A stretch of 64,000 bases of DNA from an uncultured Enterobacteriaceae bacterium (GTDB lineage Bacteria; Pseudomonadota; Gammaproteobacteria; Ga0077536): positions 329 through 64,328 of the forward strand of contig CAZFZX010000005.1 of the NCBI GenBank assembly GCA_964523765.1, in the 5' to 3' direction. The position numbers and the translations under genes are program-made. The notes below the pieces were generated by a model, which searched no databases, had not been told where the DNA came from, and saw only the letters and a list, made by a program, of their open reading frames with translations. Positions 17,591 through 34,148 of this stretch are shown here, piece by piece. Within the stretch, counting starts at the first letter, position 1; the number at the start of each line of letters is the position of its first letter.

Positions 17591-20005
17591 ATGAAAGGTA
17601 TGCGCTATCGCTTAGCCGAACTGACATTGAAGCATCGCGTGTTTTCGGCGTTGCTACTCTTTGGTGCCACGGTATTTTTCGCTGTGGGACTGAAAAACGT
17701 CGAGCTGAAGACCATCTTCTCCGATCTGTTTCCCAAGACCCATCCTTTCGTCGAGACGTATACGGCGCACCCGAACTTCGGTAATCCCTTGACCGTCACC
17801 ATGATGGTCAAGCGCACGGACGGTCAGGACATTTACAATTTCGAAACGATTTCCAAAGTGTGGCGGATGACGCGCGAGATCGATCTCACGCCCGGCGTCG
17901 ACCACGATCAGATCCTCTCGATCACCACGGAGAAAGCGCGTTACGCCGAAGCGACGCCGTTCGGGGTCGATCTGCGCCCGTTGATGGACGACAAGGCGCC
18001 GGAGTCCCCCGAGGCTATCGCCGACTTTAAAAAGCGCGTCGACAAGGCGCCGAACGTCAGGACGTTTCTAATTTCCGGGGACGAGACCGCGACGATCGTC
18101 CAGGCGACCTTCATCGAGCAGAAGCTCGAATACGGCGTGGTGTTCGATTTTGTCCAGGAACTCGCCGAGAACGAACGCGACGCCGAACACGAGATTTATG
18201 TGGCCGGGCAGCCGGTCCTCACCGGGTGGGTGTATTTTTACGAGCACCAGATGCTCGGTATTTTTGCCATGACGGCGGCCGCCTTGCTGCTCTCACTCAT
18301 TATCTACATGCAGAATATTCCCGGTGTCGTGACGCCGCTCGCGGTCAGTATCGTCGCCGCGATTTGGGGTTTCGGCTTCGTCGGCTGGATTGGCGATCCC
18401 ATCGAGCCGCTGATCATGGTCGTACCTTTGCTGTTGGTGGCGCGTTCGTTCAGCCACTGTGTGCAGTTCATCGAGCGCTATTATGAGATCTATCATCAGA
18501 TCGGGGACCGCCGGAAGGCGGCCGAACTCGCGCTCGGCGTCATGATGGCGCCGGGGGTGCTCGGAATTGTGACCGACTCGGCGGGTTTGTTCCTGATCGC
18601 GGTGGCGCCGATCCCGGTGATGGAGCGCTTCGCGCTCTTCTGCGGCTTTTGGGCCCTGATTCTCGTGCCGGCGATCCTGTTTTTGTCGCCGATTATGTTG
18701 TCCTGGTTTCCGGCGCCGAAAAATGTCGCCGTGCTGATCGGTAAATCCGAGGAACGCACCTGGCACGACAGCATTATCGATCTGCTGCAGGTGATCGGGC
18801 GCGTGAGCCACGGCGCGGCGGCACGCGTCACTACTGTCATCGTGATTATCCTGTTCGTCGTCGGTCTGTCGCTCGCGATCCAGATCAAAGTCGGCAACCC
18901 GACCGAGGGCAGTAACCTGCTGTTCGAGGATTCCGACTTCAATACCGCGGTGCGCGCGATCAACTCTCATTTCCCCGGCCTGATGACGTTGGAGATCGTG
19001 TTCGAGGCCAAGGAGGAGCAGTCAGAAGAGGGGCGCGTGTTGCGCGCGAACGAAACGATACAGACGATGTGGGCGCTGCAGCGCCGCCTCGAAGCGGCGG
19101 ACAATCCGCCCGAGGCGACGCTGTCCTTCGCCGATTATCTGCCCGAAGCAAACCGTTTGTTCAGCGGCGGCAATCCGAAATGGGGGCCGATCGATACCAA
19201 CGACGATGCCTCGAACGCGGCGGTCGGCGCCTTGCTGCTCGGGTCGAGCACCAAGAACTACAGTCACGTCAGTGACTTTCAGCTGGAAAACGGTACGGTC
19301 TCCCTCTGGTATAAGGACAATAAACAGGACACGGTCGATGTCGCGCTGGAGCAAACGCGAGAGGCCCTCGACGCGATCGGTATCGACAAGCGTCGCTTCC
19401 GTGTCCGCCTTGGCACCGGCGCGATCGCCCTGCAGCAATCGGTCAACGACACCGTGGACACCTATCAGTGGATCATCCTCGGTCTCCTGAACTTGGTGAT
19501 CCTGTTCACCTGCAGCTTCGCCTACCGCTCAGTAGCGGCCGGTATTCTGCTTCTCATCCCCGTGAATTTTTCCAACATGCTGTTGGGCGCCGTGATGGTG
19601 TTGATGGGCATCGGCCTCGACGTGAACAGCCTCCCGATCGCGGCTATCGGCATCGGCGTCGGTATCGACTACGGTATCTACCTCCTGAGCCGGATCTGCG
19701 AGGAATTCAGGGACAATCAGCACCACGGCGAGGCCATCCAGGCGGCGGTGACGACCACGGGGAAGGCGATCTTCTTTACTGCGACCATCGTGCTCATCGG
19801 GATCCTGCCCTGGTATTTTCTGTCGGAGTTGAAGTTTCTTGCCGATATGGGTCTACTGCTGGTGATGATCATGTTGATCAATATGATCATCGCCCTGGTC
19901 GTGCTGCCGCTACTGGTCTATCTGTTCAAGCCGGGCTTCGTCGAGCGCGAACATTTGATCATCTCGGAGAACACCGACATCTCCGAACTGCTCGATACCG
20001 AATAA
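17591..20005 (+). CDS. RND-superfamily MMPL/HpnN-like transporter (12 TM, two periplasmic loops)
   Basis: 804 aa with two blocks of about six hydrophobic helices separated by large soluble loops. This matches the COG1033-type layout. Confidence 0.85.
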   Translation: MKGMRYRLAELTLKHRVFSALLLFGATVFFAVGLKNVELKTIFSDLFPKTHPFVETYTAHPNFGNPLTVTMMVKRTDGQDIYNFETISKVWRMTREIDLTPGVDHDQILSITTEKARYAEATPFGVDLRPLMDDKAPESPEAIADFKKRVDKAPNVRTFLISGDETATIVQATFIEQKLEYGVVFDFVQELAENERDAEHEIYVAGQPVLTGWVYFYEHQMLGIFAMTAAALLLSLIIYMQNIPGVVTPLAVSIVAAIWGFGFVGWIGDPIEPLIMVVPLLLVARSFSHCVQFIERYYEIYHQIGDRRKAAELALGVMMAPGVLGIVTDSAGLFLIAVAPIPVMERFALFCGFWALILVPAILFLSPIMLSWFPAPKNVAVLIGKSEERTWHDSIIDLLQVIGRVSHGAAARVTTVIVIILFVVGLSLAIQIKVGNPTEGSNLLFEDSDFNTAVRAINSHFPGLMTLEIVFEAKEEQSEEGRVLRANETIQTMWALQRRLEAADNPPEATLSFADYLPEANRLFSGGNPKWGPIDTNDDASNAAVGALLLGSSTKNYSHVSDFQLENGTVSLWYKDNKQDTVDVALEQTREALDAIGIDKRRFRVRLGTGAIALQQSVNDTVDTYQWIILGLLNLVILFTCSFAYRSVAAGILLLIPVNFSNMLLGAVMVLMGIGLDVNSLPIAAIGIGVGIDYGIYLLSRICEEFRDNQHHGEAIQAAVTTTGKAIFFTATIVLIGILPWYFLSELKFLADMGLLLVMIMLINMIIALVVLPLLVYLFKPGFVEREHLIISENTDISELLDTE

Positions 20006-20032
20006 ACGAAATTGAACGATAGGACCAAAATA

Positions 20033-21067
20033 ATGACTAGCTTTGTTAACCGACTCGCGCGCGGGCGCATCGGAGGCGCACACGTGCGTGCCCTTCTCGT
20101 CTTGGCGATCGCGACGTTGCCGTTTGCGGCCGCCGCGGAGGATGCGATTAGCGAGGCGATCGAAATCGTCCGCACCGGGATCGCTCACGACGCGCTCTAC
20201 GCGCTCGACATGAACGGTGAGAAAGGGGTTGCCATCGGTAACTTCGGGCTGATCCTCGAAACGGCAGACAGCGGCGCCACTTGGAACGTGACGGAGCCGG
20301 TGACCGAACAGGCGCTGCTCGGCATTGCAACCGACGGGGAGCGCCAGATCATCGTGGGTCAGGCAGCGACCGTGTTAACGCGCGTCGGCGGCGGGCAATG
20401 GGAGCAACTAGAAAACGACCTCAGCCAGCGCCTGCTGAACGTGGATTTCGACGACAATAGCGGTCTCGTTGTCGCCGTCGGCGAGTTCGGCGCGATTCTG
20501 CGCTCGCGCGACCACGGTAAAACCTGGGAATCGATTACGATCGACTGGATGCAGTACAACGACGAGGGCTACGAGCCCCACTTATACGACGTCGTTGTCA
20601 AAGACGAAAACACCGTGGTCGTGACGGGCGAGTTCGGACTGATCCTGTGGTCCGAGGATGGCGGCGGCACGTTTACGGCTCGGCACCAGGGGGACGAGTC
20701 GATCTTCGACATCCATCTCGACGCCGACGGTACCGGGAAGGGCTGGGCGGTGGGCCAGGACGGCGAAGTGCTGCGCAGCCAGGATGCCGGTCAGACCTGG
20801 GAAAACATCGATGCCGGTTCGGTCGCCAATCTGCTTGGGGTCTGGTCCGGTCAAGGCGAGGTCGTCATTATCGGGATCCGCGAATTACTGCGATCCAGCG
20901 ACGACGGTGAGACTTGGCGCAAGGCCGATGATATCAAGATCGTCCGTACCTGGTATCAGGGAATCGATGCCGGCGTCGCCGAGATCGGAGGCGACAGCGG
21001 ATTCCTCCGTACCCAGATCGTGTATATCGCCGGCTACAACGCCACTATATCCCGGATCTTGGAATAA
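20033..21067 (+). CDS. Ycf48-like / BNR (Asp-box) beta-propeller protein, secreted
   Basis: Signal peptide followed by five Asp-boxes: TADSGATW, SRDHGKTW, SEDGGGTF, SQDAGQTW, SSDDGETW. ATG at 20033 has RBS aggacc; the ORF track starts at TTG 20012. Confidence 0.8.
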   Translation: MTSFVNRLARGRIGGAHVRALLVLAIATLPFAAAAEDAISEAIEIVRTGIAHDALYALDMNGEKGVAIGNFGLILETADSGATWNVTEPVTEQALLGIATDGERQIIVGQAATVLTRVGGGQWEQLENDLSQRLLNVDFDDNSGLVVAVGEFGAILRSRDHGKTWESITIDWMQYNDEGYEPHLYDVVVKDENTVVVTGEFGLILWSEDGGGTFTARHQGDESIFDIHLDADGTGKGWAVGQDGEVLRSQDAGQTWENIDAGSVANLLGVWSGQGEVVIIGIRELLRSSDDGETWRKADDIKIVRTWYQGIDAGVAEIGGDSGFLRTQIVYIAGYNATISRILE

Positions 21068-21308: not shown

Positions 21309-23558
21309 GTGAACAGAACTAAGCTCGCAACCATTTTCACCGCGGTGGGAATGCTGGCAATCTTTTTGGTACCGAACATCGCACTGGCCATCGACTGGAG
21401 CTTTACCGGCTTCGTCCGCCAGGAAATTGCGGTATCGATCACGAACGACAAGAACCCCAACAACGCGTCGACGAATGCGTATACGGAAGGTGCGACACCG
21501 GCGACGACGTCGAACCCGGCCGTATCCGGCCAAGCGCCGGCGGCGGTTGTGTTCAACCCGGGCGGCGCATTTTTCGCGGGCCTGCCGGCGGAAGAACGAG
21601 GCGTCTTCTCTTTCAGCCCCTCGACCTGCCCCTTCTTCGAAGGTACGGACCCCCTCGGCGCTGGCGGCTCTGAGACCCCGCTAGGGGCGCTTAACGCGGC
21701 GCTTATCGCCGCCGGCGGCGATCCCTGTGTACCGAATCTGGGCGGTGACGGCATCGCCGAAGACAAGACCATCAACATGTTCAACTCGCGCGCCGAGTTG
21801 GACATCCAGGCGAACAACATTACGGACAACATCAACGCCTTCATGAAGCTGCGTGTGTACTTCAACGGTACCAGCAACTTCAACGACGAGATCGTCGGCG
21901 ATCATTTCCAGGAAAACTTTTACGGCAATCGCGGCAACTTGCTCGAAGTGCAGTCCAACGACATCATGGTCGATATCCCTTCGCTGTATTTCGACTACAA
22001 CAAGGGCCCGCTCTGGATTCGGCTCGGTCAGCAGCAGATCGCCTGGGGCGAAGCGCTGTTCTTCCGCGTCTTTGACGTTGCCAACGGTCTGGATCTCCGC
22101 CGCCACTTTTTCCTCGACGTGGCCGCCGAAGAGTATTCCGACGAGCGGATCGCGAGCCCGGGAGTGCGCGTCAGCTACACGTTCAAGAACGGCATCGAAC
22201 TCGATGGCTTCGTGCAGATGTTCAGCCCGACCCTCCTGCCCGGCATGAACACGACCTACAATGTCGTCACCTCGGGTTTCTCCTGGGATAACCGGATCGA
22301 ACTCGACGAGGCGAAGAACACGCTCAACTACGGTATGCGTGCCATCTGGCCCGTCAACGACCAGTTGACCATGCAGGTGATGGCGGTCAACCGGCGCAAC
22401 CCGGACGGCGTAACGCGCTGGCACGATGCGCCGCGGACTCTGGATAACGGTCGGCCGAATCCGTTTTGTGCGGGTCGCACCTTAGCCCTCACGACCGCCG
22501 CGCTGGCTGGTGGCCCGGATTTCTCGGCGCTCCTTGGCTCGCCATTCGGCGGTACGATCGATCTGAGCGCGGCGGAAATCGGGATGCTGACGGGAGCTAC
22601 CCCGCTCAGCCGGACGAAATACACCGAGAACGGCTGCGGCTCCTTCTTCGCCCCCGACGCACTCGGCGGCAGCTCCGGCCATAACTGGTACAACCTTGCG
22701 CCGCAGGCCCGGATCGACTCCGCCGCCGCGGTGGCCGCGAGCATCAACCTGACGCAGATATCCAGCCTCGAGTCCCGCGAGGGCTTCGGTCTCCCGGATG
22801 AATACGGCCGGGCGAGCCGCGGGATCACGCTTGGGGTCGATGATGCCGTCACACGCTACGGTTCGATCAAAGCTGCCGCGCACAACACGCTCGATGCGTT
22901 CTATACCGGTTTCGGTTCGCTGCGCGGTTGGATCACGCGCGAGTTCAAGCGCGAATCGATCTTCGGTTTTGGCGGAACCTATATTTTCAACACCGAGGAC
23001 CAAGAGAGCTTTTTCAATCAGCTCATCCTCCGTGGCGAAATGAGTTACACGCCGGACAAGCGCTTCACGGCGATGGACTTGGGGGGTGATTGGATCGAAG
23101 AGGACGAGTTCACCGCCTCGGTTGTGGCGGAGAAATGGCATCGTTGGACGGACAAGGTGCCGGGAATGTACATGGTCGCGGAGTGGATGATCAAAACCGA
23201 GTCCGACCTTTACGGCCGCCACCTGAGTGGTTCGGAGAATACGCCAGGCTTGGGTCTGAATGCCGACGGCACCTATCAGGACGACGGGATCCCCGACGGT
23301 TCGGATTACTTCAACGCCGTGGTGTTTGCGTTCCAGCAACCGTTCCCGAACCTGGTGTGGCGCCTCGATTCGTCGTTCCTGCTCGACCTCGAGGGCGGCT
23401 GGTTCTTGCAAACCGGCGTCCGGTATCGGCCGAGCGCACACTTCCAGTTCGACATCTATGCGAACATTGCGCAGGACGGCGGCGACAAGAACGACGATAT
23501 CATTGAGACCACGGACTGGGCCGACGAAGTCTTCGTCCGCGCGACGTACTTCTTCTAA
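21309..23558 (+). CDS. DUF1302-family outer-membrane beta-barrel protein
   Basis: 749 aa. Signal peptide, hallmark LWIRLGQQQIAWGEALFFRVFDVANGLD, and an aromatic C-terminus (VRATYFF) typical of OM barrels. Confidence 0.75.
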   Translation: MNRTKLATIFTAVGMLAIFLVPNIALAIDWSFTGFVRQEIAVSITNDKNPNNASTNAYTEGATPATTSNPAVSGQAPAAVVFNPGGAFFAGLPAEERGVFSFSPSTCPFFEGTDPLGAGGSETPLGALNAALIAAGGDPCVPNLGGDGIAEDKTINMFNSRAELDIQANNITDNINAFMKLRVYFNGTSNFNDEIVGDHFQENFYGNRGNLLEVQSNDIMVDIPSLYFDYNKGPLWIRLGQQQIAWGEALFFRVFDVANGLDLRRHFFLDVAAEEYSDERIASPGVRVSYTFKNGIELDGFVQMFSPTLLPGMNTTYNVVTSGFSWDNRIELDEAKNTLNYGMRAIWPVNDQLTMQVMAVNRRNPDGVTRWHDAPRTLDNGRPNPFCAGRTLALTTAALAGGPDFSALLGSPFGGTIDLSAAEIGMLTGATPLSRTKYTENGCGSFFAPDALGGSSGHNWYNLAPQARIDSAAAVAASINLTQISSLESREGFGLPDEYGRASRGITLGVDDAVTRYGSIKAAAHNTLDAFYTGFGSLRGWITREFKRESIFGFGGTYIFNTEDQESFFNQLILRGEMSYTPDKRFTAMDLGGDWIEEDEFTASVVAEKWHRWTDKVPGMYMVAEWMIKTESDLYGRHLSGSENTPGLGLNADGTYQDDGIPDGSDYFNAVVFAFQQPFPNLVWRLDSSFLLDLEGGWFLQTGVRYRPSAHFQFDIYANIAQDGGDKNDDIIETTDWADEVFVRATYFF

Positions 23559-23990: not shown

Positions 23991-24650
23991 ATGGATGACA
24001 CAGCTATGAACCAACTCGGCGGAGACATGTGGGCCGCCGCGCGCTCGCTGCTCGAATTGGGCGGGCCCGTGGTGGCCGTTCTCATGGTGATCTCCGTGTT
24101 CGGGTTCGCCATTGCAATCTACAAATTCTTCCAGTTTTCCACCTTGAGCCCCGGCCGCTTCAAAGCGCTCCATACCGCGCTCGGCAAATGGCAGGCAAGC
24201 CCGGAGGAGTGTTTGCAGCGCCTCGAAAAGTCTCGGCTCGGCCTCGGCCCGATCATGAAATTCGGCCTCGACCATCGCGATGAGCCCGACACCGAGGAAT
24301 TGCGCGAAGAACTCGCCCGCCAGGCGACCAATTTCCTCCAACCCTATGGGCGCTACCTGCGGCCCCTGGAACTCATCTACTATCTCGCACCGGTGTTGGG
24401 CCTGCTCGGGACGGTGCTCGGGATGATCGAGGCCTTCCGCGGCCTCGAGGCGAGCTCCGGTCTGGACAAGGATTCGACCGCGCTCGCCGGCGGCATCTGG
24501 GAGGCATTGCTGACGACCGCGGTCGGTCTTTCGATCGCCATTCCTTTTACCGTGGTGCACGCGTGGCTCGAGACCCGCCTCGATGCCGCGACGGCGCAGG
24601 TATCCGATCTGCTCACGCGCGTCATGACCATCAACGTTGGGTCGAAGTAG
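23991..24650 (+). CDS. exbB: MotA/TolQ/ExbB-family proton channel
   Basis: About 219 aa with three TM helices. Signature APVLGLLGTVLGMIEAF and GGIWEALLTTAVGLSIAIPF. Confidence 0.85.
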   Translation: MDDTAMNQLGGDMWAAARSLLELGGPVVAVLMVISVFGFAIAIYKFFQFSTLSPGRFKALHTALGKWQASPEECLQRLEKSRLGLGPIMKFGLDHRDEPDTEELREELARQATNFLQPYGRYLRPLELIYYLAPVLGLLGTVLGMIEAFRGLEASSGLDKDSTALAGGIWEALLTTAVGLSIAIPFTVVHAWLETRLDAATAQVSDLLTRVMTINVGSK

Positions 24651-24657
24651 CGAATTG

Positions 24658-24775
24658 CGTGTTCGGAAAAATGCTTCACTTCTCTAGCTGTACCAGCGCC
24701 CGTCGTACCGGCGCCCGTCATACCGGGCTCGACCCGGTATCCAGTAAGAAAGCCCGCCGCAGGCGGACATTGCTT
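24658..24775. repeat. family A repeat copy 4 (partial)
   Basis: gtgttcggaaaaatgcttcac ... gtcataccgggctcgacccggtatccagtaagaaagcccgccgcaggcggacattg. It sits between exbB and exbD. Confidence 0.6.
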
Positions 24776-24789
24776 GGCTGCACCGCGCG

Positions 24790-25194
24790 ATGATCGCAAT
24801 CCAGCGCCGACGACGTTCGTCCAGGCTGTCGCTGACGCCGTTGATCGACGTCGTGTTCATTTTGTTGATCTTCTTTATGTTGGAGAGCGATTTTTTAAGG
24901 CCCTACGTCATGGAACTCGCGCAAGCCGGCGGCGGCGCCCGTGAAGCAGGCGCGAAGACGACGCCGATCTCGATCGAATTGCACAGCGACCGGACGATAT
25001 GGATCAACAAGGCGTCTTTTCCGATGCAGAACGTGGAGCATGCCATCGTTGAACTCAATCCCGCGGAGGATTCACCCGTGGTCGTCGCGGCCGATCCGGG
25101 CGTCCCGCTGCAGCGCGCGGTGAGCATCATCGATATCCTGCAACGCCGCGGACTGACCAACATCGCGCTCACCGAAGCGGAGCGCTTCGATTGA
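24790..25194 (+). CDS. exbD: ExbD/TolR-family protein (canonical TM Asp)
   Basis: 134 aa. TM segment is SLTPLIDVVFILLIFFM, with Asp20 encoded by GAC at 24847-24849. Confidence 0.85.
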   Translation: MIAIQRRRRSSRLSLTPLIDVVFILLIFFMLESDFLRPYVMELAQAGGGAREAGAKTTPISIELHSDRTIWINKASFPMQNVEHAIVELNPAEDSPVVVAADPGVPLQRAVSIIDILQRRGLTNIALTEAERFD

Positions 25195-25213
25195 GGGCAA
25201 AAAATAGAATAGT

Positions 25214-25265
25214 GGGGTCAGACCCCTTTAGTAGCTCATTAATGGGGTCTGACCCCATTTTTTCC
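25214..25265 (+). terminator. terminator-like hairpin built from two inverted GGGGTCAGACCCC units
   Basis: ggggtcagacccc (25214-25226) and ggggtctgacccc (25244-25256) form a 13-bp stem followed by attttttcc. It lies between the two exbD genes. Confidence 0.5.
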
Positions 25266-25273
25266 GTTTTCTT

Positions 25274-25696
25274 ATGTTAGATCCCAAAACGCGAAAATTT
25301 GGTTCGGTCGGCGGCAGGCACGTGAGTCCCTCGCACGAACGGCGTCCCGAAAATGTCGTGCCCATGATCAACATCGTCTTTTTGCTGCTGCTTTACTTCA
25401 TGGTCGCCGGTAATCTGCATATCGACTTGGAGGTGACCCCACCCACTTCCGCGGCCTCGACCCAGCCATCGCCGAACGTGCTCCAGATTGCGATCACGGC
25501 GGCCGGCAAGGTCCAGTACCGCGGCGGCAGCATCGCCATCCCGCAGATTGAACTCGAGCTTAAGAATGATTTCAAAGACCAGGTAGTCCAGCTTTCGGCG
25601 GATGCGCAGACCGATGCGATATTGGTCGCCCAGGCGGTTGCATCCCTGTCCAAGGTCGGCGTCAAGCAGATCACACTGTTGACATTGAAGCACTAG
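25274..25696 (+). CDS. ExbD/TolR-family paralogue with Asn in place of the TM Asp
   Basis: 140 aa. TM segment is VPMINIVFLLLLYFMV. Codon 33 is AAC (25370-25372) where ExbD/TolR normally carry the essential Asp. Confidence 0.8.
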   Translation: MLDPKTRKFGSVGGRHVSPSHERRPENVVPMINIVFLLLLYFMVAGNLHIDLEVTPPTSAASTQPSPNVLQIAITAAGKVQYRGGSIAIPQIELELKNDFKDQVVQLSADAQTDAILVAQAVASLSKVGVKQITLLTLKH

Positions 25697-25937
25697 ATAA
25701 TTGATCCGAAATGCGCTTCACGTTGTTCGTAGGTCCGTCTGCCGTCACCCCGGACTTGTGACCTACAGGGACGTAGGAAATGCGAAAGGATTGCAGGAGC
25801 AATCCTCGCTCCGGGGTCCAGTCAAACAATGTCCGCCCGCGGCGGGCTTTTTCTACTGGATGCCGGATCCGTCACCCCGGACTCGATCCGGGGCCGGCAT
25901 GACGAAAGTGATCGATATTTCGGAACAGTTATCTGAG
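25693..25937. mobile_element. MITE-like element, family A copy 5 (inverted relative to copy 1, with nested insertions)
   Basis: Collinear with the reverse complement of copy 1, plus two extra hairpin modules inserted into existing hairpin loops. The left end ctag contains the TAG stop of exbD2. Confidence 0.75.
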
Positions 25938-25993
25938 CCTAGCGAATCATCAGCCGATTTTCCTCGGGAGAACGCCCAACCCTTGGACGGTAG

Positions 25994-26078
25994 AACCACG
26001 GAGAACACGAAGATCAGTAAATCGAGATCCATTAGAACTATTCATTGAATCTCCGTGTTCTTCGTGTTCTCCGTGGTT
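25994..26078. repeat. long hairpin repeat, family C copy 1
   Basis: Perfect 20-bp arms aaccacggagaacacgaaga / tcttcgtgttctccgtggtt around an AT-rich loop of about 45 nt. Confidence 0.65.
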
Positions 26079-26171
26079 AAATGCATGCGATTATTAGTAA
26101 TTGGCTCGAACCCACCGAAAAGCCCCCGGTGGTGGATGTGACAGGCTCAGGGCTCACGAAGTAAGCGAACT

Positions 26172-27272
26172 ATGAAGCGACTGATTATTTGGCCCCTGTT
26201 GTTCGGCATCTCGCTGATCACCCATGCCATCATCTCGTGGCGGGTGGGGCAGGACATCGACAACGCAAAGTACGCGACCGAAGACGTCGAGATCCACATT
26301 ACGCTCGCGGATCCGCCGAAACCAAAACCCGTCGAACGGCCCCCCCCTGAGGACACGTTGGAGTTCGAGGAGGAGTTTGAGATCGAGCCGCCGGACATGT
26401 TGATCGCGCCGCAGGCGGTGACGCCGCCGCCGCCGGACGTACCGCTAGCTTTGCGTGCCGATTCCGGCGGCATGACCGGGTTTGAGTTGACCAACCCGGT
26501 CTCCGCGCTGCCGCTCGGCGAGGGTTTTGGTACGGCCGGTTTCGGTCGTGGCATCGGTAACGCACTTGGGAATTCTTCGAATCGCTTTGCCGCCTACGTG
26601 TCCGGACTGCGCAACGCCGGACTCGACGTCGTTTTCGTGATCGACGCGACTGGTTCCATGTCGTGGGCGATCGACGAGGTCAAGATCCGCATTCACGATA
26701 TCTTGCAGACCGTGCGTACCCTGGTTCCGGCCGCACGCTTCGGTCTGGTCGCGTTTCGCGATCGCAAAGATCCGGAATTCGTCGTCCGCACGCAGCCGCT
26801 GACCTACAGCACGGCGAAGCTGCGGCGTTTTCTCGACCCCCTCGAAGCGGTCGGTGGCGGTGATCAGTATGAGGACATCACCGAAGGTGTGGCCGCCGGC
26901 ATCGAGGAGAGCGGTTGGCGTGCCGGTGCGCGGCGCATCCTGATCGTCGTCGGCGATGCGCCGCCGCGGCGCGAGAAAGTCGGCCCCCTCGTTCACCGGA
27001 TCGAGAACTTCGCGGCGATCGGCGGTACGGTATCGACATTGGACATCGGTCCGCAGGCGAACCCGGGCCTGGTCGAGGCCAAGGTCGGTCGCTCGGTCAA
27101 CCGGGCTTTGTTTCGTAACGCACCCTTATACGAATTTCAGATCATGGCCGATGCCGGCGGTGGAGATGCCGCCACCCTGGACGGCGATGTGAAGATCACG
27201 AAGCGTCTGATCACTTTGATCATGGGCGAGCAGTTCGCCGCCGAGATGCGCGCACTGCTCGAGGTGATCTGA
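26172..27272 (+). CDS. TonB-like N-terminal anchor and Pro-rich spacer fused to a von Willebrand factor A (vWA) domain
   Basis: 366 aa. Single TM with an S-x3-H motif (GISLITHAII). Pro/Glu-rich linker (PPKPKPVERPPPED...VTPPPPDVP). vWA domain with a MIDAS-like motif (VVFVIDATGSMS ... ILIVVGDAPP). I recognised no TonB C-terminal domain. Confidence 0.8.
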   Translation: MKRLIIWPLLFGISLITHAIISWRVGQDIDNAKYATEDVEIHITLADPPKPKPVERPPPEDTLEFEEEFEIEPPDMLIAPQAVTPPPPDVPLALRADSGGMTGFELTNPVSALPLGEGFGTAGFGRGIGNALGNSSNRFAAYVSGLRNAGLDVVFVIDATGSMSWAIDEVKIRIHDILQTVRTLVPAARFGLVAFRDRKDPEFVVRTQPLTYSTAKLRRFLDPLEAVGGGDQYEDITEGVAAGIEESGWRAGARRILIVVGDAPPRREKVGPLVHRIENFAAIGGTVSTLDIGPQANPGLVEAKVGRSVNRALFRNAPLYEFQIMADAGGGDAATLDGDVKITKRLITLIMGEQFAAEMRALLEVI

Positions 27273-29533
27273 TGCGGCGCCGGCGCGGTTTGCCCAGTAG
27301 GTGTCTCCAGGTGTTGCTGTTCGTATGCCTGGCGACGCCGGTCGCTGCGCAGACCGTGCCTTCCGCGCCGGGGGAGGCCATCGCGCAGGCGCGTCAATTA
27401 CTGTCCGCTTTGACCGACGAGGCTGCGACCAGCCGTTTCGCTCAAGTTAGCCGCGAATACGGCCTGGTGGTCGACGGAGTACGCCAGGGTAAGGCGACGA
27501 TGGCGCAGTTGACCACGATGCGCGACATCACGCGGCGGATGCGCGAGCGCGCGACCGCGCGCCTGAAGGCGGCCGAGGCCGAGGCCGGCGAGAACGAAGG
27601 AGCCCTGGAAGGGCTCTACCGCTCGGTTACTTGGGACGATCTGAGCTTCGCGTTGGCCGCATTTCCGTACTGGGGCGCTTGGATTGATCTGGAGATCTCC
27701 AAGCGGCTCAAGGACCCCGACGAGAAGCGGAAATGGATCTGGGAGGCTAAGAAGGGGTTTCGATCCACCTCCGTGCAGGTCTTCCGGCCGAGTCTCATCT
27801 ACGGTGGTTGGCTCGGTCTTGGCTATGTCGCGGCGGCGGAGGGCAGGACCGATCGCGCGCTTTCGATCTTCGAGAGTCTGGAGAATTCGTTGGCCGATGA
27901 TCCGACTCATCCGCTCTATGACGTGGTCTCTCTGGAACTCCGTCTGCTACGCGCCAAGCAAGGCAAGGTTGTCGGTTCCGGCGGCACCGGGCGGATCGAT
28001 GCCCGGGAAGCGAAGCTGTTGCGCGTGGAGGCCTTTGCGTTGTTCGAGCAGTATCGAACCACCCAGTCCGGCGCGAACGAGGCGGCGAGCCGCTTGAAGC
28101 GGGTGATCGACGCGGGTTACATCGACGATGAATTGATCGCGTTGATCCTCAAGTACCGGGCCGAAATCGTCGCCCACAACCTCGGCCCTTATACCGCGCT
28201 CGCCGGCGCCGAATACGCCTTCGAATATGAACATTATTTCGACGCCGTGCGTAAGTACAAGGAGTTCTTTGCGACCGTCGAATTTCGCGGCGACGTCAAT
28301 TTTGACCGGATCCGTTACCGGCACGCGCTGGCGTGCTACAAAGCGAAGTTGAACGACGACGCCGCGATCATCGCGGAGAGTCTGCTGCGGAACAAAGAGC
28401 TCGATCCCGAGATCAAGAAAGCGGCGGTGAAACTCGCTTACGTCGCGCGGGCGACACGCAAAGGCAAGCCGACCAGAAGCTCGCGCGGCGCCATGCAACG
28501 GGCGGCCGAGCGTTTCGTCACCCACTACCCGAATGACGCCGACGCCGATGGCGCGCGGCTGCGCGTCGCGCAGCAAACGAGCGATTCGAATAAGGCGTTC
28601 TACATGCTCAACAGCGTTCAGAAACCGGCCAAGCTGAAAGGCGGCGTACAGCAGACAAAATTCTATATCGTGGCACGAGATTTCGCGAACGCGATTCGGC
28701 GCACCAAGAACAAACCACCGAAGGCCCTGGCCGCGCGGGGGATCAGCGCATACCGGCAACTGCCGAACAAGCAGCAGCGGATCCCGGAGAACAAGGCCAT
28801 CGTGATCCAAATGCGCGCGCTCGCCGACAAACGGCCGGCTGAGGTGATCGCGGCGATCGATGCCGCGGAAAAGGCGGGCGGACTCAGTTTGTCCGCTCGG
28901 CAGGCGATGCTGTGGGCGCGGCTGAAATGTCTGGAGCGGCTGCAGAATAACGATAACCTCATTGCTTTCCTCGGGCAGCTCGCCGGGTCGAGTCTGGAAG
29001 GTTGGCAGCTAGAGCAAATCTATCCGACGATCAAGTCGACCGAGGACGTAAATGTACGCTTGGCCGCCGCCAAGACTTTGCTACCGGCGTTGACTTCGGA
29101 CCCGGCGATGGAACGCCGTTTCAAGATCATTTTGATCGAGGCGATGTTGGACCTCGAACAATACGCCGAAGCCTACGAACAGGCGAAGCAGTTCCGGGAA
29201 GCCTATCCGAAAGCCGGCGATGCCTACCGTCTGTTTGCCATCGCGGCGGCCAAGACGGACAGACCGATAGAGGCCGATCGTGCCTGGCGAATCATTACCG
29301 ATCGAGCCGACCCACGCCGGGAGGTGTGGTGGGATGCGATGTTGCAGCGGATCGAAATCCGCGCCGGATCGACGCGGCCGAAAGCCGCTTGCGAAGTGCT
29401 GTCCGAAGTCGATGCCCGCGCACCATTGATGCCGGCGGCCGTGGCGCCGAAGTTTGAAGCGCTGCGCGGCACGTTACCGTGCGCGGCACAAAGGGGTCAG
29501 ACCCCTGCGCTCGAAGAGCGCGATAAGGGTTGA
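27272..29533 (+). CDS. large secreted all-alpha / TPR-like repeat protein
   Basis: 753 aa. The ATG overlaps the upstream TGA (TGATG). Signal peptide is LQVLLFVCLATPVAAQ. The rest is Ala/Leu/Arg-rich helical repeat composition. Confidence 0.7.
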   Translation: MRRRRGLPSRCLQVLLFVCLATPVAAQTVPSAPGEAIAQARQLLSALTDEAATSRFAQVSREYGLVVDGVRQGKATMAQLTTMRDITRRMRERATARLKAAEAEAGENEGALEGLYRSVTWDDLSFALAAFPYWGAWIDLEISKRLKDPDEKRKWIWEAKKGFRSTSVQVFRPSLIYGGWLGLGYVAAAEGRTDRALSIFESLENSLADDPTHPLYDVVSLELRLLRAKQGKVVGSGGTGRIDAREAKLLRVEAFALFEQYRTTQSGANEAASRLKRVIDAGYIDDELIALILKYRAEIVAHNLGPYTALAGAEYAFEYEHYFDAVRKYKEFFATVEFRGDVNFDRIRYRHALACYKAKLNDDAAIIAESLLRNKELDPEIKKAAVKLAYVARATRKGKPTRSSRGAMQRAAERFVTHYPNDADADGARLRVAQQTSDSNKAFYMLNSVQKPAKLKGGVQQTKFYIVARDFANAIRRTKNKPPKALAARGISAYRQLPNKQQRIPENKAIVIQMRALADKRPAEVIAAIDAAEKAGGLSLSARQAMLWARLKCLERLQNNDNLIAFLGQLAGSSLEGWQLEQIYPTIKSTEDVNVRLAAAKTLLPALTSDPAMERRFKIILIEAMLDLEQYAEAYEQAKQFREAYPKAGDAYRLFAIAAAKTDRPIEADRAWRIITDRADPRREVWWDAMLQRIEIRAGSTRPKAACEVLSEVDARAPLMPAAVAPKFEALRGTLPCAAQRGQTPALEERDKG

Positions 29534-29793: not shown

Positions 29794-30750
29794 TTGTTGT
29801 GCGGGTTTCTCGGCAGCGGCAAGACCACACTTTTAGGCCGGGCGCTCGGACACCCGTCGCTTGCTAACGCGGTGGTCATCGTCAACGAGTTTGGCGAGGT
29901 CGCCATCGATCATCTCGTGGTGGCCGACCTCGCCGAGAACGTTCTCGAACTGCGCAACGGTTGTCTATGCTGCACGATCCGCGGCGATCTGGCGCTGACG
30001 CTCCGCGCGCTCTACCATCGGCGGCAGTTGGGCGACATCAACGCATTCGATCACGTGGTCGTCGAAACCAGTGGGCTCGCCGATCCCATTCCCTTGGCGC
30101 ACACATTGATGGCGAACCCGCCGTTGATGAAAGCGTTTTTCCTGGACGCCATTATCTGCGTGGTCGATGCGATCAGCGGAGCCGCGACCGTAGACGAGCA
30201 TGACACCGCCGCAAACCAGGTTGTCTTGAGCGACCTCATCGTCGTCAGCAAATCCGATATCGCAAAACCGGCCGATCTCACCCGGACCCTGGCCGCCGTT
30301 GCCAGGATCAATCCGGGCGCCGAGGTCCGCGAGGTAGTGAAAGGCGAAGTCGATTGTGGGGAAATATTTGGCCGCCGCTTGTTCAACCCCGAGACGCGCA
30401 CGGGCGCCATCGCACAATGGGTGTCGACCCACGTCGGACACCGTCACAACCATACTTACGGCACCCACACTATCGTCCGCGAAGAACCGTTAAGTCTTGC
30501 CGGAACGTCCGTGTTCTTGAACCACGTCGTCAACGAACAACGACTGCAGATGTTGCGCATCAAAGGCTTAGCGGGGTTTCGAGAAAAGGACGGTGCGCCT
30601 GCGCTGCTTCACGCGGTCGGCGATAAGTTTTATCCTATTAGGTGGCTGACGGAATGGCCGAGTACCGATCGCTCGAGTCGGTTGGTTTTCATCGGCCGTG
30701 ATTTGGACACGGAATGGCTGGATGCAAAGTTTGAGGCGCTCTGTAATTGA
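29794..30750 (+). CDS. COG0523 (CobW/YjiA/ZigA-like) G3E-family metallochaperone GTPase
   Basis: P-loop GFLGSGKTTL, metal motif GCLCCT, switch ETSGLADP, SKSD, and a His-rich stretch HVGHRHNHTYGTH. Only a TTG start is available, three codons before the P-loop. Confidence 0.8.
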   Translation: MLCGFLGSGKTTLLGRALGHPSLANAVVIVNEFGEVAIDHLVVADLAENVLELRNGCLCCTIRGDLALTLRALYHRRQLGDINAFDHVVVETSGLADPIPLAHTLMANPPLMKAFFLDAIICVVDAISGAATVDEHDTAANQVVLSDLIVVSKSDIAKPADLTRTLAAVARINPGAEVREVVKGEVDCGEIFGRRLFNPETRTGAIAQWVSTHVGHRHNHTYGTHTIVREEPLSLAGTSVFLNHVVNEQRLQMLRIKGLAGFREKDGAPALLHAVGDKFYPIRWLTEWPSTDRSSRLVFIGRDLDTEWLDAKFEALCN

Positions 30751-30795: not shown

Positions 30796-30943
30796 CGTCA
30801 CCGTCATACCGGGCTTGACCCGGTATCCAGTAGATAAAGCCCGCCGCAGGCGGACATTGTTTAACTGGACCCCGGATCGAGTCCGGGGTGACGGGCGCGG
30901 GTATAAGCACGAAAGTGAAGCATCTTTTGGAACGCATATCTAG
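30796..30943. repeat. family A repeat copy 6 (right end intact, left end missing)
   Basis: gtcataccgggcttgacccggtatccagtagataaagcccgccgcaggcggacattg..ccccggatcgagtccggggtgacgg...cgaaagtgaagcatcttttggaacgcatatctag. Confidence 0.65.
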
Positions 30944-30969: not shown

Positions 30970-32343
30970 ATGCGAATTCGAAAATACGACCGCGGCTATA
31001 GTAGGCGCCGTTTTCTGGAGCTAACCTCCAAGGGTACGCTCGGCGCCGGCGTGCTGTCGCCCGTATGGGACGCCGTCGCGGCGAACGGCGGTTTCGAGGC
31101 CAGCTACCCAGACGAGTTGTTGTCGATAGAAGAATACACCAAAGGGGCGCTGAAGCCTGGCGACACGATCGACGCCGACAACGTCGATCTGGTCCAGGAT
31201 CTGCTCGATCCGATCCGCTTCACGCAGATCAAGCAAATGGGGCGCAAGCTCGAACTGGTCCCCACCGTCACCGATATGACACGCCTGAGTCCCGTCGATT
31301 ACATCGAGGCGACCTTGCGCAACCGCGGCCGGGCAACCTTCGATGCGAAGGGTAACGTTGTCACCGACGACGGAAAACCGTGGATCGGCGGACTGCCGTT
31401 TCCGGAGCCGAAAAACGGGCTCGAAGTCTTCGTCGGGATAACGCTTTCATGGGGCCGGCACGACGTGTCGTTTTATCCGGTCAAGGACTATGAGATCAAC
31501 CCGGACGGAACCCAAGGGTATTACTACGAAGTCGTTTGGGTCGAGTATCAGCCGGTCGGACGGGTGACCATCGATCCCAAGCCGTACTGGCCCGGACACG
31601 AGCACATGCTGCGCTACCAGTCGGTACTTTTCACATTTCCCAATGACGCCAAGGGTACTTCGTTCCTGAATTCGTGGTATTACGACCAGTCGAAGTTTCC
31701 GAAACTGCAGGGCTACCTGCCGCAGTTCAAGCGCGTTCGCAAGTTTCCCGCCAGCCAGCGATTCGAACCTTTGATCGCCGGTTCGACGCTCTACCTGTCG
31801 GATGCATGGGCGGCGGGTGATCCCTACCTGACTTGGGGAAACTACAAGATAATAGCCCGCGGTCCGTTTCTGTCCGGCTTGTCCGAAAACTGGCACAGCG
31901 AGGATGAGAGCTGGGAAGGCGGCGTCCACGGCGGGCCGAAAGGGATCACCTTCTGGGATACAAAAGTCGAGCTGATCCCGGAGGTGATCGTCGTCGAAGC
32001 GGAGCCGACCTCGTATCCGCGGGCGCCGATCAGCAAAAAACGCGTCTGGTTCGACGCACGGACATTGCTGCCGGTGAACATGGTGAGTTACGACCGGCGC
32101 GGTGAACCCTTCAAGTCGTTCGACGGGAGCTATTCATTGTATGAGAACGGGTCGCAATCCGTCGCGGACGGCAGCCGGCCCTACTGGTCTTGGTGCAACG
32201 TCCACGCGCACAACGTACAAAGCGACCGCATGACTCGTCTCGTGCAGGTGAAAAATCTGCGCGGTTACGAAATGAGCGTCAACGATCCCAGCGTCTACGA
32301 AAACTTTCTGACGGTGCAGGCGCTGCGGCGGATGGGCACCTGA
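30970..32343 (+). CDS. DUF1329-family (LolA-like) periplasmic protein with a twin-arginine-type signal
   Basis: 457 aa. Tat-like motif SRRRFLELTSKG. DUF1329 hallmark is GKPWIGGLPFPEPKNGLEVF. Confidence 0.8.
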   Translation: MRIRKYDRGYSRRRFLELTSKGTLGAGVLSPVWDAVAANGGFEASYPDELLSIEEYTKGALKPGDTIDADNVDLVQDLLDPIRFTQIKQMGRKLELVPTVTDMTRLSPVDYIEATLRNRGRATFDAKGNVVTDDGKPWIGGLPFPEPKNGLEVFVGITLSWGRHDVSFYPVKDYEINPDGTQGYYYEVVWVEYQPVGRVTIDPKPYWPGHEHMLRYQSVLFTFPNDAKGTSFLNSWYYDQSKFPKLQGYLPQFKRVRKFPASQRFEPLIAGSTLYLSDAWAAGDPYLTWGNYKIIARGPFLSGLSENWHSEDESWEGGVHGGPKGITFWDTKVELIPEVIVVEAEPTSYPRAPISKKRVWFDARTLLPVNMVSYDRRGEPFKSFDGSYSLYENGSQSVADGSRPYWSWCNVHAHNVQSDRMTRLVQVKNLRGYEMSVNDPSVYENFLTVQALRRMGT

Positions 32344-32386: not shown

Positions 32387-32537
32387 CTCCTATTGAGGTT
32401 TACACAAAGATTGAACACCTGTGCACCGTAGGTTGGATTAGGCGCAAAGGCGCCGTAATCCAACTATTGGTCTATCGTGTTGGGTTACGCCCTGCGGGCT
32501 AACCCAACCTACAGGTTCACGAATTGTGAAAGCCTCA
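32387..32537. mobile_element. MITE-like element, family B long form, copy 3 (about 150 bp)
   Basis: Terminal inverted repeats tgaggtttacacaa / ttgtgaaagcctca enclose a pair of GTAGGTTGG(A/G)TTAGG REP units. About 88% identical (by eye) to 50517..50670. The right end contains the thiolase stop codon. Confidence 0.75.
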
Positions 32538-33776
32538 GTATTGCCCCAAGATCGTCAGGCAGGCGACGGCTTCTTCGACGCCGACGATTCCGCCACCGTT
32601 TTGCGCCATCGCCAGCTTTGCACCCTCGACCTGTCTCGCACCCGCCTCGCCTCTTAATTGAGTCACCAACTCGTAGATCTGCCCGAGCCCGGTCGCGCCG
32701 ATCGGATGACCTTTCGACTCCAAGCCACCGGAGGTGTTGATCGGAATTCGGCCGCCCAGCGCCGTTTCGCCGCGCTCGGCAACGACGCCGCCTTCGCCGA
32801 CCGGACAAAACCCCAATGCTTCGGATTCGATGACTTCGCCGGTCGCGCTGGCGTCATGAACTTCGGCGACGTCGATATCTTCCGGGCCCACGCCTGCCTG
32901 CTCGTAAGCCTGGCGGGCGCCTAGGTGGCTGCAATGACGGCTGAAATCGGTGGCGGGGCGATTGGAGCCGGTGCGGATCACGGTCGCCATGACCCGCATC
33001 ATCCGTGCCCTGGTATTCGTGAGCCGTTTGAGGCCCTCGGTATTGCAGACGATTGCCGCGGCCGCGCCATCGCTGATCGGTGAGCACATGGGGATGGTCA
33101 ATGGGTAAGTGATCGGCGCCGCGCCGAGTACTTCCTCCACGCTAAACGCTTTCGTGTATTGCGCAAGCGGGTTCATCGTCGAATGGCCATGGTTCTTCGA
33201 CGCGACGGCCGCGAGCTGCCGCTGCGTCGTGCCGAATTCCCGCATGTGCATCCGCGAGAATCCCGCGTAGACGTCCATGAATATGCTGTAGGGTCGCGGT
33301 GAGGTCGAGCCCTCCGGGATTTCGACCCCATCGCCCATAGCGCTCCATTGTCGAACGAGGTTGTCGACGTTATGCACGTCCCACGCGCCGTCGAAGGCGC
33401 TGAACATCTTGGCCTTGTCTTGTGAGTACATTTTTTCCGCCCCGATGGCGAGCGCAATATCAGCCGCTCCCGCCTTCACATAATTGACGGCGAGATGGAA
33501 TGCGGTGATTGCCGTCGCACACGCGTTCTCGACATTGACGACCGGTATGCCTTCGATCCCGAGCGATCGCAGTGCGACTTCGCCGCGCACCATGTCCTGC
33601 CCTTCCATATGGCCCTGGACACAGTTACCGAAAAATGCCGCTCCTATCGATTCTTTGTCGCCGCCGGCGTCTGTAAGGACACCGGCGAGCGCTTCGCCGG
33701 TGAGCGCTTTAAGGCTCTTGTTCAGGTGCTTCCCGAAGTGGGTCATGCTAACGCCGGCAATGTAAATGTCGCTCAT
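32535..33776 (-). CDS. thiolase-family protein (SCP-x / lipid-transfer-type thiolase)
   Basis: 413 aa. IYIAGVSMTHFGK at the N-terminus, active-site region VENACATA, and C-terminal GGLESKGHPIGATG and NGGG motifs. Confidence 0.85.
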   Translation of the reverse strand: MSDIYIAGVSMTHFGKHLNKSLKALTGEALAGVLTDAGGDKESIGAAFFGNCVQGHMEGQDMVRGEVALRSLGIEGIPVVNVENACATAITAFHLAVNYVKAGAADIALAIGAEKMYSQDKAKMFSAFDGAWDVHNVDNLVRQWSAMGDGVEIPEGSTSPRPYSIFMDVYAGFSRMHMREFGTTQRQLAAVASKNHGHSTMNPLAQYTKAFSVEEVLGAAPITYPLTIPMCSPISDGAAAAIVCNTEGLKRLTNTRARMMRVMATVIRTGSNRPATDFSRHCSHLGARQAYEQAGVGPEDIDVAEVHDASATGEVIESEALGFCPVGEGGVVAERGETALGGRIPINTSGGLESKGHPIGATGLGQIYELVTQLRGEAGARQVEGAKLAMAQNGGGIVGVEEAVACLTILGQY

Positions 33777-34148
33777 TTCGCTTACTCCGAAAGCCTGGGA
33801 TACAGGTTTGAACTCCGTCCCGACGGTTTGCTAGGGTCTGCCACCGAGGATGGCGGACCGGTACCTGTCAAATGGTACTGCGATTAGCAACCGCGCGCGC
33901 GTCGCGCCGATGAGGAATGCGGGATAGTATGGGTATTCAGGCGGGGCCGTAGCCGAGCCGCCATAAAACGAGAAAGCGAAACGCGGGAATTCAAGCATGT
34001 TGCGTATCGAAACTGGAGCCGCTGCTGCATTCGCCTACCTGCCGCTACGCGAGACGGGATGCCGAAGCGGTCGTGACGGCGGTGCGGAGTTGGCGGTGTC
34101 GCTGGCGCTCCTTTCTTCGCGGCGCCCGCATTCGTATGCCTCAACGCT

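Follow-up and report, generated by a model that had tools for sequence, protein, structure and literature searches.

An ExbB-ExbD-ExbD motor module with a TonB-like-anchored von Willebrand A protein in a DUF1302/DUF1329 transporter cassette: a candidate force transducer for outer-membrane transport in uncultured Gammaproteobacteria

On what does a proton-driven envelope motor act when its TonB-like partner ends in a domain of the von Willebrand factor A (vWA) type? To our knowledge, Ton/Tol-type force transduction at the outer membrane has two firmly assigned jobs, the opening of TonB-dependent receptors and envelope maintenance by Tol-Pal. The question is raised by five genes on a 64,000-nucleotide stretch of contig CAZFZX010000005.1 (assembly GCA_964523765.1; the whole stretch that was analyzed is called the window), which encode an ExbB/TolQ-like protein, two ExbD-like proteins, a vWA protein of 366 residues and a secreted protein of 753 residues resembling tetratricopeptide repeat (TPR) proteins. 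The architecture of this module is well supported. We consider it reasonably probable that it forms a Ton-like transducer, driven by the proton-motive force, that acts on the transport of hydrophobic substrates across the outer membrane by a LolA-like protein and a DUF1302 barrel, client and mechanism being what we infer here. The five co-oriented open reading frames, which the original prediction had placed at 23991-29533, were all confirmed on the forward strand:

23991..24650, + strand: ExbB/TolQ-like stator subunit (PF01618, 2.6e-27; ATG at 23991, in-frame TTG at 23988)
24790..25194, + strand: ExbD1 (PF02472, 6.9e-21)
25274..25696, + strand: ExbD2, a paralogue of ExbD1 (PF02472, 5.2e-17)
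26172..27272, + strand: candidate vWA force transducer, 366 residues (Pfam vWA models, AlphaFold2, Foldseek, conservation)
26181..26240, + strand: single N-terminal transmembrane helix of the vWA protein, residues 4-23 (hydropathy, hydrophobic segment at residues 3-23; S14 at 26211-26213, H18 at 26223-26225)
26241..26561, + strand: its Pro-, acidic- and Gly-rich linker, residues 24-130 (composition, conservation, AlphaFold2 disorder)
26358-26453, + strand: conserved linker box LEFEEEFELEPP-(D/E)xLIAPQAV-PPPPDVPL, residues 63-94 (conservation)
26562..27176, + strand: helix and vWA domain, residues 131-335 (AlphaFold2, Foldseek, conservation)
27192..27266, + strand: conserved C-terminal amphipathic helices TKRLITLIMGxQFAxEMxALLEVI, residues 341-365 (conservation)
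27272..29533, + strand: secreted TPR-like alpha-solenoid, 753 residues (AlphaFold2, Foldseek; start overlaps the vWA stop)

For comparison, species-representative genomes together with targeted look-ups supplied 84 loci, and a metagenome collection that was scanned with an alignment of eight vWA sequences supplied 79; loci are numbered from L001 onward. The motor protein ExbB has three hydrophobic segments, and its nearest solved structures are ExbB (7ajq/6ye4, 8e-9) and TolQ (~1e-6). In TonB of E. coli, the SHLS motif consists of S16, H20, L27 and S31. The single transmembrane helix of the vWA protein carries the S-x3-H that had been noticed originally, with S14 and H18 at the spacing of TonB and TolA, and both residues are present in all 82 relatives that have an N-terminus. 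Together with the D-x-T-x-S of the metal-ion-dependent adhesion site (MIDAS), they are invariant in 26 relatives at ~30% identity. V25 and I29 occupy the positions equivalent to L27 and S31, so that half of the SHLS motif is kept. Lys-Arg precedes the sole hydrophobic segment of the protein, which is therefore predicted to be oriented N-in, C-out. The expected Pro-rich spacer was borne out by a linker of 107 residues that contains 16% Pro, 19% Glu plus Asp and 10% Gly and is disordered from residue 31 to 130 in the AlphaFold2 model. Its conserved box has seven invariant residues (F65, P73, P74, L77, P80, P86 and P88) and is a candidate 'motor box' strand like those of TonB and TolA.

The only domain matches of the protein are VWA_4 (1.9e-12), VWA_2 (3.8e-8) and VWA (2e-5), all at residues 152-274, and TonB_C is absent from its Pfam and NCBIfam matches. 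AlphaFold2, supplied with 22 homologues, returned a confident vWA fold for residues 150-335 (predicted local distance difference test, pLDDT, ~86-95), and a Foldseek search of the PDB matched this model to BatB (3ibs, 1.2e-9), to a second Bat-operon protein (4jdu), and to integrin beta I-like domains, ANTXR2/CMG2, Rpn10 and ITIH. When the sequence was compared with those of solved structures, it matched the vWA domain of ITIH4 alone (E 0.005), which is uninformative beyond 'vWA'. The MIDAS residues D158-x-T160-x-S162 (nucleotides 26643-26657), T211 and D262 are all present; D158, T160 and D262 occur in 83 of 83 relatives, and positions 162 and 211 hold either S or T. The MIDAS-bearing vWA domain proposed at the outset thus holds, the MIDAS being complete as judged by its residues and metal binding being predicted. 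The C-terminal helices contain the invariant residues T343, R345, L346, L349, I350, G352, F355, A356 and L362; the last 25 residues are strongly conserved yet have low pLDDT in the monomer model, and we regard these helices as a candidate docking element.

A TonB_C-like fold in the C-terminal half, which the original prediction had named among the findings that would overturn it, was sought with Pfam, NCBIfam and Foldseek and none was seen, all 50 Foldseek PDB matches listed being of the vWA type. A canonical TonB or TolA with a hidden C-terminal domain is contradicted by these searches and by the modeled fold. As for a Zorya-type anti-phage motor, weak ZorA-like matches are confined to ExbB (E 1e-4), but no ZorB-, ZorC- or ZorD-like protein was found and PADLOC returned nothing for the other four proteins, and this identification was rejected as well. 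We give an unrecognized TonB/TolA domain or a Zorya system next to no chance.

The gene for the 753-residue protein begins inside the vWA stop codon. The shared TGATG, which had been taken to point to translational coupling, was read directly in the window sequence at 27270-27274, and the two genes, adjacent in every locus with contig room, overlap in 56 of 77 loci (by 4 nt in 29 and by 1 nt in 27). The partner has a signal peptide (residues 1-26) and models as 39 helices with a mean pLDDT of 87, in agreement with the secreted helical-repeat protein that had been predicted, and Foldseek relates it only to generic long TPR solenoids. It has no significant Pfam match, with TPR_30 and YbgF (E 0.03) appearing faintly, and its profile retrieved none of the PDB sequences below E 0.29. 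The faint signal in its C-terminus is YbgF/CpoB-like and Tgl-like, and the pair Cys707/Cys737 is kept in ~77 of 78 relatives. The TPR proteins of three loci with other gene orders (L088, L089 and L090) are collinear with the window profile over 380-577 columns (hhalign probability 89-94%, E 2e-6 to 8e-8).

How large the vWA family is became apparent from a profile search of 1.84 billion representatives at 50% identity, which yielded 299 vWA clusters at E<=1e-30. S-x3-H lies in a hydrophobic N-terminal segment in 103 of the 148 best representatives, many of the others being fragments or having G/A-x3-H. As far as can be judged from sequence, the window protein is thus one member of a large family in which vWA proteins have a TonB-like anchor. 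With Q for ExbB, R and r for the two ExbDs, V for vWA and T for TPR, the same five components are found in the orders QRrVT, VQRRT (L090 and many others), TQRRV (L088, a metagenome-assembled genome, MAG, of Candidatus Binataceae), VTQRR (L089) and, divergently, RRQ|VT (L132, L148 and L151). Because it recurs in ~160 independent loci, the five-gene arrangement is far beyond chance, and the retention of content in spite of permuted order is strong evidence for a functional module. The module appears to be an old and widely spread unit, and both the conserved neighbourhood and the pairing of a Ton/Tol-type motor with a TonB-like anchored vWA protein, as originally read from the window, extend far outside the source genome. 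A variant with one ExbD of the Asp type was seen in L133, L135, L137, L157, L164, L167, L129 and L141, and one contig (L134) carries two module types, vWA-ExbB-ExbD-ExbD-TPR followed by a LolA-like gene, and then ExbB-ExbD-vWA. Transducers also occur without a motor, either as vWA-TPR pairs (L009, L011 and L025) or as vWA-TPR-DUF1329 triads (L074, L078, L083 and L034), and further loci have the transporter cassette described below without local exbBD (L026, L029, L035 and L058). Some of these are second copies, with S-x3-H kept, in MAGs where a full locus exists as well, which suggests that one motor may serve several transducers much as multiple TonBs share one ExbBD. The carriers' annotations do not go beyond 'vWA domain-containing protein', 'hypothetical protein' and 'ExbD'. 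MAGs labeled Enterobacteriaceae, Klebsiella pneumoniae and Hydrogenophaga intermedia are among the carriers (L014, L046, L067 and L069); they are probably mislabeled or contaminated bins, as the locus is otherwise found in environmental gammaproteobacterial MAGs only.

The original prediction knew of no described fusion of a TonB-type anchor and a vWA domain working with ExbBD. In this respect it has to be corrected, since vWA 'motor-driven force transducers' have been proposed in silico, though not characterized experimentally, for Proteobacteria, Planctomycetes, Verrucomicrobia, Bacteroidetes and Rhodothermaeota (Williams-Jones et al. 2025, Mol Biol Evol 42:msaf138). In that work, AlphaFold 3 docks the His on the motor as for TonB and TolA; the function is given as 'unknown', no phenotype is described, and gliding or adhesion is guessed (Williams-Jones et al. 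2025). Of the refuting conditions set originally, the one that names an already characterized family is thus hit in part. In common with these transducers, the window module has a transmembrane helix with S...H, a disordered or Pro-rich linker and a C-terminal vWA domain, and it is accompanied by one tolQ/exbB-like gene, a pair of differing tolR/exbD-like genes and a gene for a TPR protein; the published order TPR-TolQ-TolR-TolR-vWA is matched in L088. The published seed, transducer 1 of Tichowtungia aerotolerans, was taken from the supplement and has no detectable similarity to the window vWA protein (BLASTP E 2.7; hhalign E 0.23), so that membership in the same sequence family was rejected. 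The seed lacks a MIDAS (DADKRM) and a Pfam vWA match, whereas the MIDAS of the window protein is intact; its locus encodes two tandem transducers and two Asp-type ExbDs, whereas the window stator combines an Asp and an Asn (D/N); and its TPR protein (TPR938) cannot be aligned to the window TPR profile (probability 8.5%, 26 columns). Unlike in the Tichowtungia locus, the TPR gene of the window lies downstream and is translationally coupled, and the module is located within a cassette of resistance-nodulation-division (RND), DUF1302 and DUF1329 genes that goes unmentioned in Williams-Jones et al. (2025). Because the published family is largely defined by fold, the mismatch to its seed leaves room for membership at the level of architecture. 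The window module fits the published architecture but appears, by these comparisons, to represent a different, much larger and MIDAS-bearing sequence family. New are the transporter context of the AmeABCD type, the neighbour from the LolA superfamily and the Asp/Asn stator; the fusion itself was proposed in 2025.

Pairs of vWA and TPR proteins are typical of Bat operons, which carry MoxR and DUF58 and are not known to carry ExbBD. The window module could accordingly be read as a Bat-like vWA/TPR complex that happens to stand beside an ordinary ExbBD, its S-x3-H being coincidental and no force being transduced. The BatA-E aerotolerance operon likewise combines membrane-anchored, MIDAS-bearing vWA proteins (such as BatB) with TPR proteins (BatC), and BatB is the top structural match, accompanied by 4jdu. 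However, Pfam listed neither MoxR nor DUF58 for the window region, L001-L004 or L085-L086, and the identification as a Bat operon was rejected. S and H are invariant down to ~30% identity, the motor genes co-occur in five permuted orders, and ExbD2 has diverged specifically in the window lineage. We therefore consider a Bat-like complex very improbable; it is contradicted, as are the disguised TonB and the Zorya motor, by the sequence, Foldseek and PADLOC tests.

The divergence of ExbD2 concerns the residue on which proton-driven stators depend. ExbD1 has the proton-binding Asp of the transmembrane segment (D20 in TPLIDVVF, nucleotides 24847-24849), and this residue is Asp in 68 of 68 orthologues. 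ExbD2 has Asn at the same position (N33 in VPMINIVF, nucleotides 25370-25372), conserved as Asn in 67 of 68; the missing Asp of ExbD2 was not mentioned in the original prediction. Thus a MotA_ExbB protein and an ExbD with a transmembrane Asp are both available for a 5:2 stator of the MotA/TolQ/ExbB type, while in the window lineage only one of the two ExbDs has the protonatable Asp. All metagenome loci arranged as ExbB-ExbD-ExbD-vWA-TPR have the D/N combination, inside the RND cassette or not, and other gene orders, including the Tichowtungia locus, have D/D or one Asp-type ExbD. Its conservation therefore argues for a stator that is, in the window lineage, an obligate heterodimer with one protonatable site; judged from these residues, the ExbD1(Asp)/ExbD2(Asn) pair implies an asymmetric stator. 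Many Ton systems with two ExbDs are described in the literature, and in a search that was not exhaustive we did not find a description of an Asp/Asn pair.

What the motor might serve is indicated by the genes on both sides of it. These flanks, which the original prediction had not taken up, comprise the following:

17591..20005, + strand: HAE3/MMPL-type RND transporter of the inner membrane, AmeD-like, with which the cassette begins (PF03176, 3.6e-24; TIGR00921, 1e-41)
20012..21067, + strand: BNR/Ycf48-like beta-propeller with signal peptide, AmeC/COG4447-like (PF14870 PSII_BNR, 5.7e-17)
21309..23558, + strand: DUF1302 outer-membrane beta-barrel with signal peptide, AmeA-like (PF06980, 1.3e-21)
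29794..30750, + strand: COG0523/CobW-family GTPase (PF02492, 1.3e-43; PF07683, 5.6e-16)
30970..32343, + strand: DUF1329 LolA-like periplasmic protein, AmeB-like (PF07044, 2.9e-56; LolA_like, 4.2e-9)

These genes make up a cassette of the AmeABCD type, and the motor module occupies the place between its DUF1302 and DUF1329 genes; most of the ~160 related loci have the module embedded in such a cassette, in two different gene orders. The complete series MMPL-BNR-DUF1302-ExbB-ExbD-ExbD-vWA-TPR-(CobW)-DUF1329 is present in 27 genome loci and, minus one element, in several more; across the cassette loci, the vWA proteins are 45% to 88% identical to that of the window, and what lies beyond the cluster varies. 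The MMPL gene lies upstream of the module in 27 or more loci with full flanks, the BNR gene is co-located with it in the same loci, and the DUF1302 gene, whose product in the window has no TonB-dependent-receptor Pfam match, directly precedes exbB in most loci. A second arrangement, BNR-MMPL-DUF1302-...-vWA-ExbB-ExbD-ExbD-TPR with a D/D stator, is found in L092, L094 and L096; L092, with a GC content of 68%, shares 37% identity with the window in the vWA and 31% in the MMPL protein, and has a gene for a HEAT-repeat lipoprotein-like protein of 390 residues between its DUF1302 and vWA genes (L092:8072-9244). The GTPase, of a metallochaperone type, is an optional member that stands between the TPR and DUF1329 genes in ~31 loci (roughly 40%); it is cytoplasmic and so has no evident connection with the periplasmic MIDAS metal.

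Of the 62 genome loci with room, 46 have a DUF1329 gene within 4.5 kb after the TPR gene, and one follows TPR in 12-14 of 29 such metagenome loci. In seven of these 29, the gene directly after TPR encodes a protein of ~575 residues with a C-terminal LolA_like domain (PF17131, 1e-18 to 1e-35) and a weak DUF1329 match. These proteins, which are found in three other gene orders, were missed by the DUF1329 hidden Markov model and revealed by a Pfam scan of the neighbours; earlier counts of 'stand-alone' modules therefore overstate their independence. Examples are L133:11765-13501, L145:15028-16905 and L151:11039-12754, others being present in L127, L132, L134, L137 and L147, and the N-terminal half of the family is uncharacterized. 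Across four gene orders, no other neighbour accompanies the vWA-TPR pair as constantly as a LolA-superfamily protein, which we therefore take as the best candidate client. The window DUF1329 protein and its orthologues in L074 and L078 have a twin-arginine-type signal (SRRRFLE at residues 11-17; signal region 30970-31020), which suggests that the protein may be exported folded, and the other periplasmic parts have Sec-type signals.

All four families of the 'tetrapartite' HAE3-RND system AmeABCD, and of the co-fit cluster of Price et al. (P. putida PP_0765/0766 plus PP_2018/2019), flank the module, though in a different gene order, D-C-A-[module]-B. Cofitness of the RND, BNR, DUF1302 and DUF1329 genes is described for Shewanella, Kangiella and Pseudomonas (10.1101/072470), P. 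putida needs them for growth on Tween 20 and butyl stearate (10.1101/2020.07.04.188060), and deletion of AmeABCD lowers the monoterpene tolerance of Castellaniella defragrans (PMC6394551). DUF1302 is an 18-stranded barrel whose nearest structures are AlgE and a carboxylate channel of A. baumannii (PMC13499233), and AlphaFold-Multimer predicts that DUF1302 forms a complex with DUF1329 (PMC13499233, interface score ipTM 0.84; PMC10866462) and that DUF1329 forms one with BNR and RND (PMC10866462; PMC13499233). The setting is shared as well, namely the catabolism of hydrophobic or ketone substrates. ExbB, TonB, motor, vWA and TPR genes are unmentioned in the published accounts of DUF1302/DUF1329 cassettes that we examined.

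On this basis, we propose the following working model. ExbB5-ExbD1/ExbD2 would turn proton flow into rotation, and the vWA protein would be the force transducer, its transmembrane helix sitting on the edge of the ExbB pentamer via S14/H18, as in TonB, and its linker box engaging the periplasmic domains of the ExbDs. At ~3 Å per residue, the extended linker of ~105 residues could span the periplasm. The vWA domain and the co-translated TPR solenoid (~720 residues) would form a periplasm-spanning head that grips its partner, and we infer a MIDAS grip in place of the TonB box: the metal would most likely clamp an acidic side chain of the partner and thus replace the strand pairing of the TonB box. 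The head would pull on the DUF1329/DUF1302 outer-membrane complex of the AmeABCD-type RND transporter, so that one outer-membrane step for hydrophobic substrates would depend on the proton-motive force, for example the opening or un-capping of the DUF1302 barrel or the pulling of a loaded LolA-like carrier off the barrel. Uptake is favoured by nearby genes for acyl-CoA synthetase, thiolase and acyl-CoA dehydrogenase as well as by the Tween 20 phenotypes, efflux by the dye and tolerance data from C. defragrans.

Like TonB-ExbB-ExbD, the module has a motor of the ExbB/ExbD family and a transducer that is bitopic and N-in, with S-x3-H followed by a spacer rich in Pro and Glu; motor-less transducer copies and an adjoining gene for an outer-membrane barrel are further shared features. 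Unlike TonB-ExbB-ExbD, it has no TonB C-terminal domain, has lost the L and the second S of SHLS, has two ExbD paralogues of which one is without the Asp, and includes a TPR partner as an obligatory component. TonB2 of Vibrio has a normal TonB C-terminal domain and, unlike the window module, serves TonB-dependent receptors. Its cluster encodes the TPR-motif protein TtpD2, which is essential for TonB2 function (PMC6957404); the likeness, a TPR protein encoded with the motor, is one by description, TtpD2 having 425 residues and the window protein 753.

Several points weigh against a transducer dedicated to this transporter. The contacts between the vWA protein and the motor, between the vWA and TPR proteins, and between either of these and DUF1329/DUF1302 are predicted from gene context and motif conservation, S and H alone are retained of the four SHLS positions, and the carriers found are all MAGs of uncultured Gammaproteobacteria/Pseudomonadota. 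A D/N stator could be slower or regulatory and not force-generating. Most described DUF1302/DUF1329 cassettes (Pseudomonas, Shewanella and Castellaniella) are reported without a motor, so that the cassette can work unassisted, and because RND pumps are themselves driven by the proton-motive force, the need for a second motor is not obvious. Finally, the module stands alone, with 8-10 kb of unrelated flanks, in L047, L049, L051, L060, L063, L077, L081, L130, L139, L154, L155 and L162; the transporter is therefore not the sole possible client.

These stand-alone modules, in several lineages, also speak for an autonomous envelope system, be it a tether like Tol-Pal or a device for adhesion or gliding, whose place in the cassette would reflect co-regulation or hitch-hiking. 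Such a system would be in line with the guess of gliding or adhesion by Williams-Jones et al. (2025) and with the faint resemblance of the TPR C-terminus to YbgF/CpoB and Tgl. Tol-Pal with CpoB/YbgF likewise has, beside a TolQR-like motor and a bitopic transducer, a periplasmic TPR protein whose gene lies downstream, but in the window the TPR protein is ~3x larger, vWA replaces domain III of TolA, and TolB and Pal are lacking: no TolB, Pal or TolA was found among the module genes and their five immediate neighbours (Pfam/NCBIfam) or among ten further open reading frames at 6224-16314 and 32535-41947 (Pfam). In the locus tables examined there are no Pal, TolB or gliding (Glt/Gld) genes. Moreover, loci with vWA identities of 45% to 88% keep the module at precisely this place between DUF1302 and DUF1329, the link to the transporter recurs in the second gene order (L092, L094 and L096), and a LolA-superfamily gene follows TPR in four gene orders. 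It is therefore rather unlikely that the system is autonomous.

Less probable still is an assembly or quality-control factor, in which a vWA/TPR complex driven by the proton-motive force would help the DUF1302 barrel or the RND complex to mature without gating transport. TPR and vWA domains are typical scaffolds, relatives of BNR/Ycf48 are assembly factors, and a COG0523 metallochaperone-type GTPase is often part of the cluster. However, the conserved motor, the S-x3-H and the long linker point to repeated mechanical work, and motor-less cassettes presumably assemble in other bacteria, as we gather from the literature. Returning to the Ton-like transducer acting on the LolA-like/DUF1302 system, its full extension would be a third kind of outer-membrane transport energized by the proton-motive force, beside TonB-dependent receptors and Tol-Pal, with an Asp/Asn motor and a MIDAS grip on DUF1329/PF17131 and DUF1302; this we put forward as a tentative possibility.

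The wider neighbourhood of the loci has metabolic genes. An AMP-binding (acyl-CoA synthetase-like) gene stands between TPR and CobW/DUF1329 in ~17 loci (including L004, L007, L008, L046, L050, L052, L055, L056, L059, L066, L068, L069, L073, L075, L080 and L081), which hints at vectorial acylation of an imported acid, and genes for thiolase and acyl-CoA dehydrogenase are often near the module. In the window, hydantoinase A/B (acetone/acetophenone-carboxylase-like) sets lie on both sides of the cluster (8717-16314 and 37456-41947), as they do in L001, with a vWA identity of 64% (1-3159 and 15832-19697); genes for a PQQ alcohol dehydrogenase (6224-8086) and for a thiolase (32535-33776) lie close by as well.

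The intergenic gaps inside the window module measure 139, 79 and 475 bp, whereas in relatives the module genes adjoin or overlap, with median gaps of 2-9 bp. Two of the gaps contain copies of a repeat element:

24650..24787, strand not assigned: repeat element, partial copy between exbB and exbD1 (repeat search, families D3, I8 and I9)
25692..25934, strand not assigned: the same repeat element, full copy within the 475 bp that separate exbD2 from the vWA gene (repeat pairs I2-I7)

The element belongs to an intergenic family of ~150-240 bp with several short hairpins, resembling repetitive extragenic palindromes or miniature inverted-repeat transposable elements (REP/MITE-like), and occurs in both orientations, with copies in the window at 1723-1895, 24650-24787, 25692-25934, 30802-30943, 47009-47075 and 51611-51768. 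The gaps in the cluster are unusually wide because three copies have been inserted there. A spurious open reading frame over each copy translates to ...KQCPPAAGF....

The ~160 loci give a concrete and testable set of partners, namely DUF1329/PF17131 LolA-like proteins, the DUF1302 barrel and the HAE3 RND pump, and the conserved Asp/Asn ExbD pair offers a natural test of the number of protonatable sites that a 5:2 motor requires. The DUF1302/DUF1329/BNR/RND cassette has fitness phenotypes (Tween 20, fatty esters and monoterpenes) without an accepted mechanism or direction. If the proposed link is true, it would provide the orphan vWA force transducers with a first client and the DUF1302/DUF1329/BNR/RND system with an energy source, and it would mean active passage of lipids and other hydrophobic substrates across the outer membrane. 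Marine and freshwater Gammaproteobacteria would then possess an energized outer-membrane route for hydrophobic carbon, which would be of relevance to the turnover of lipids and hydrocarbons.

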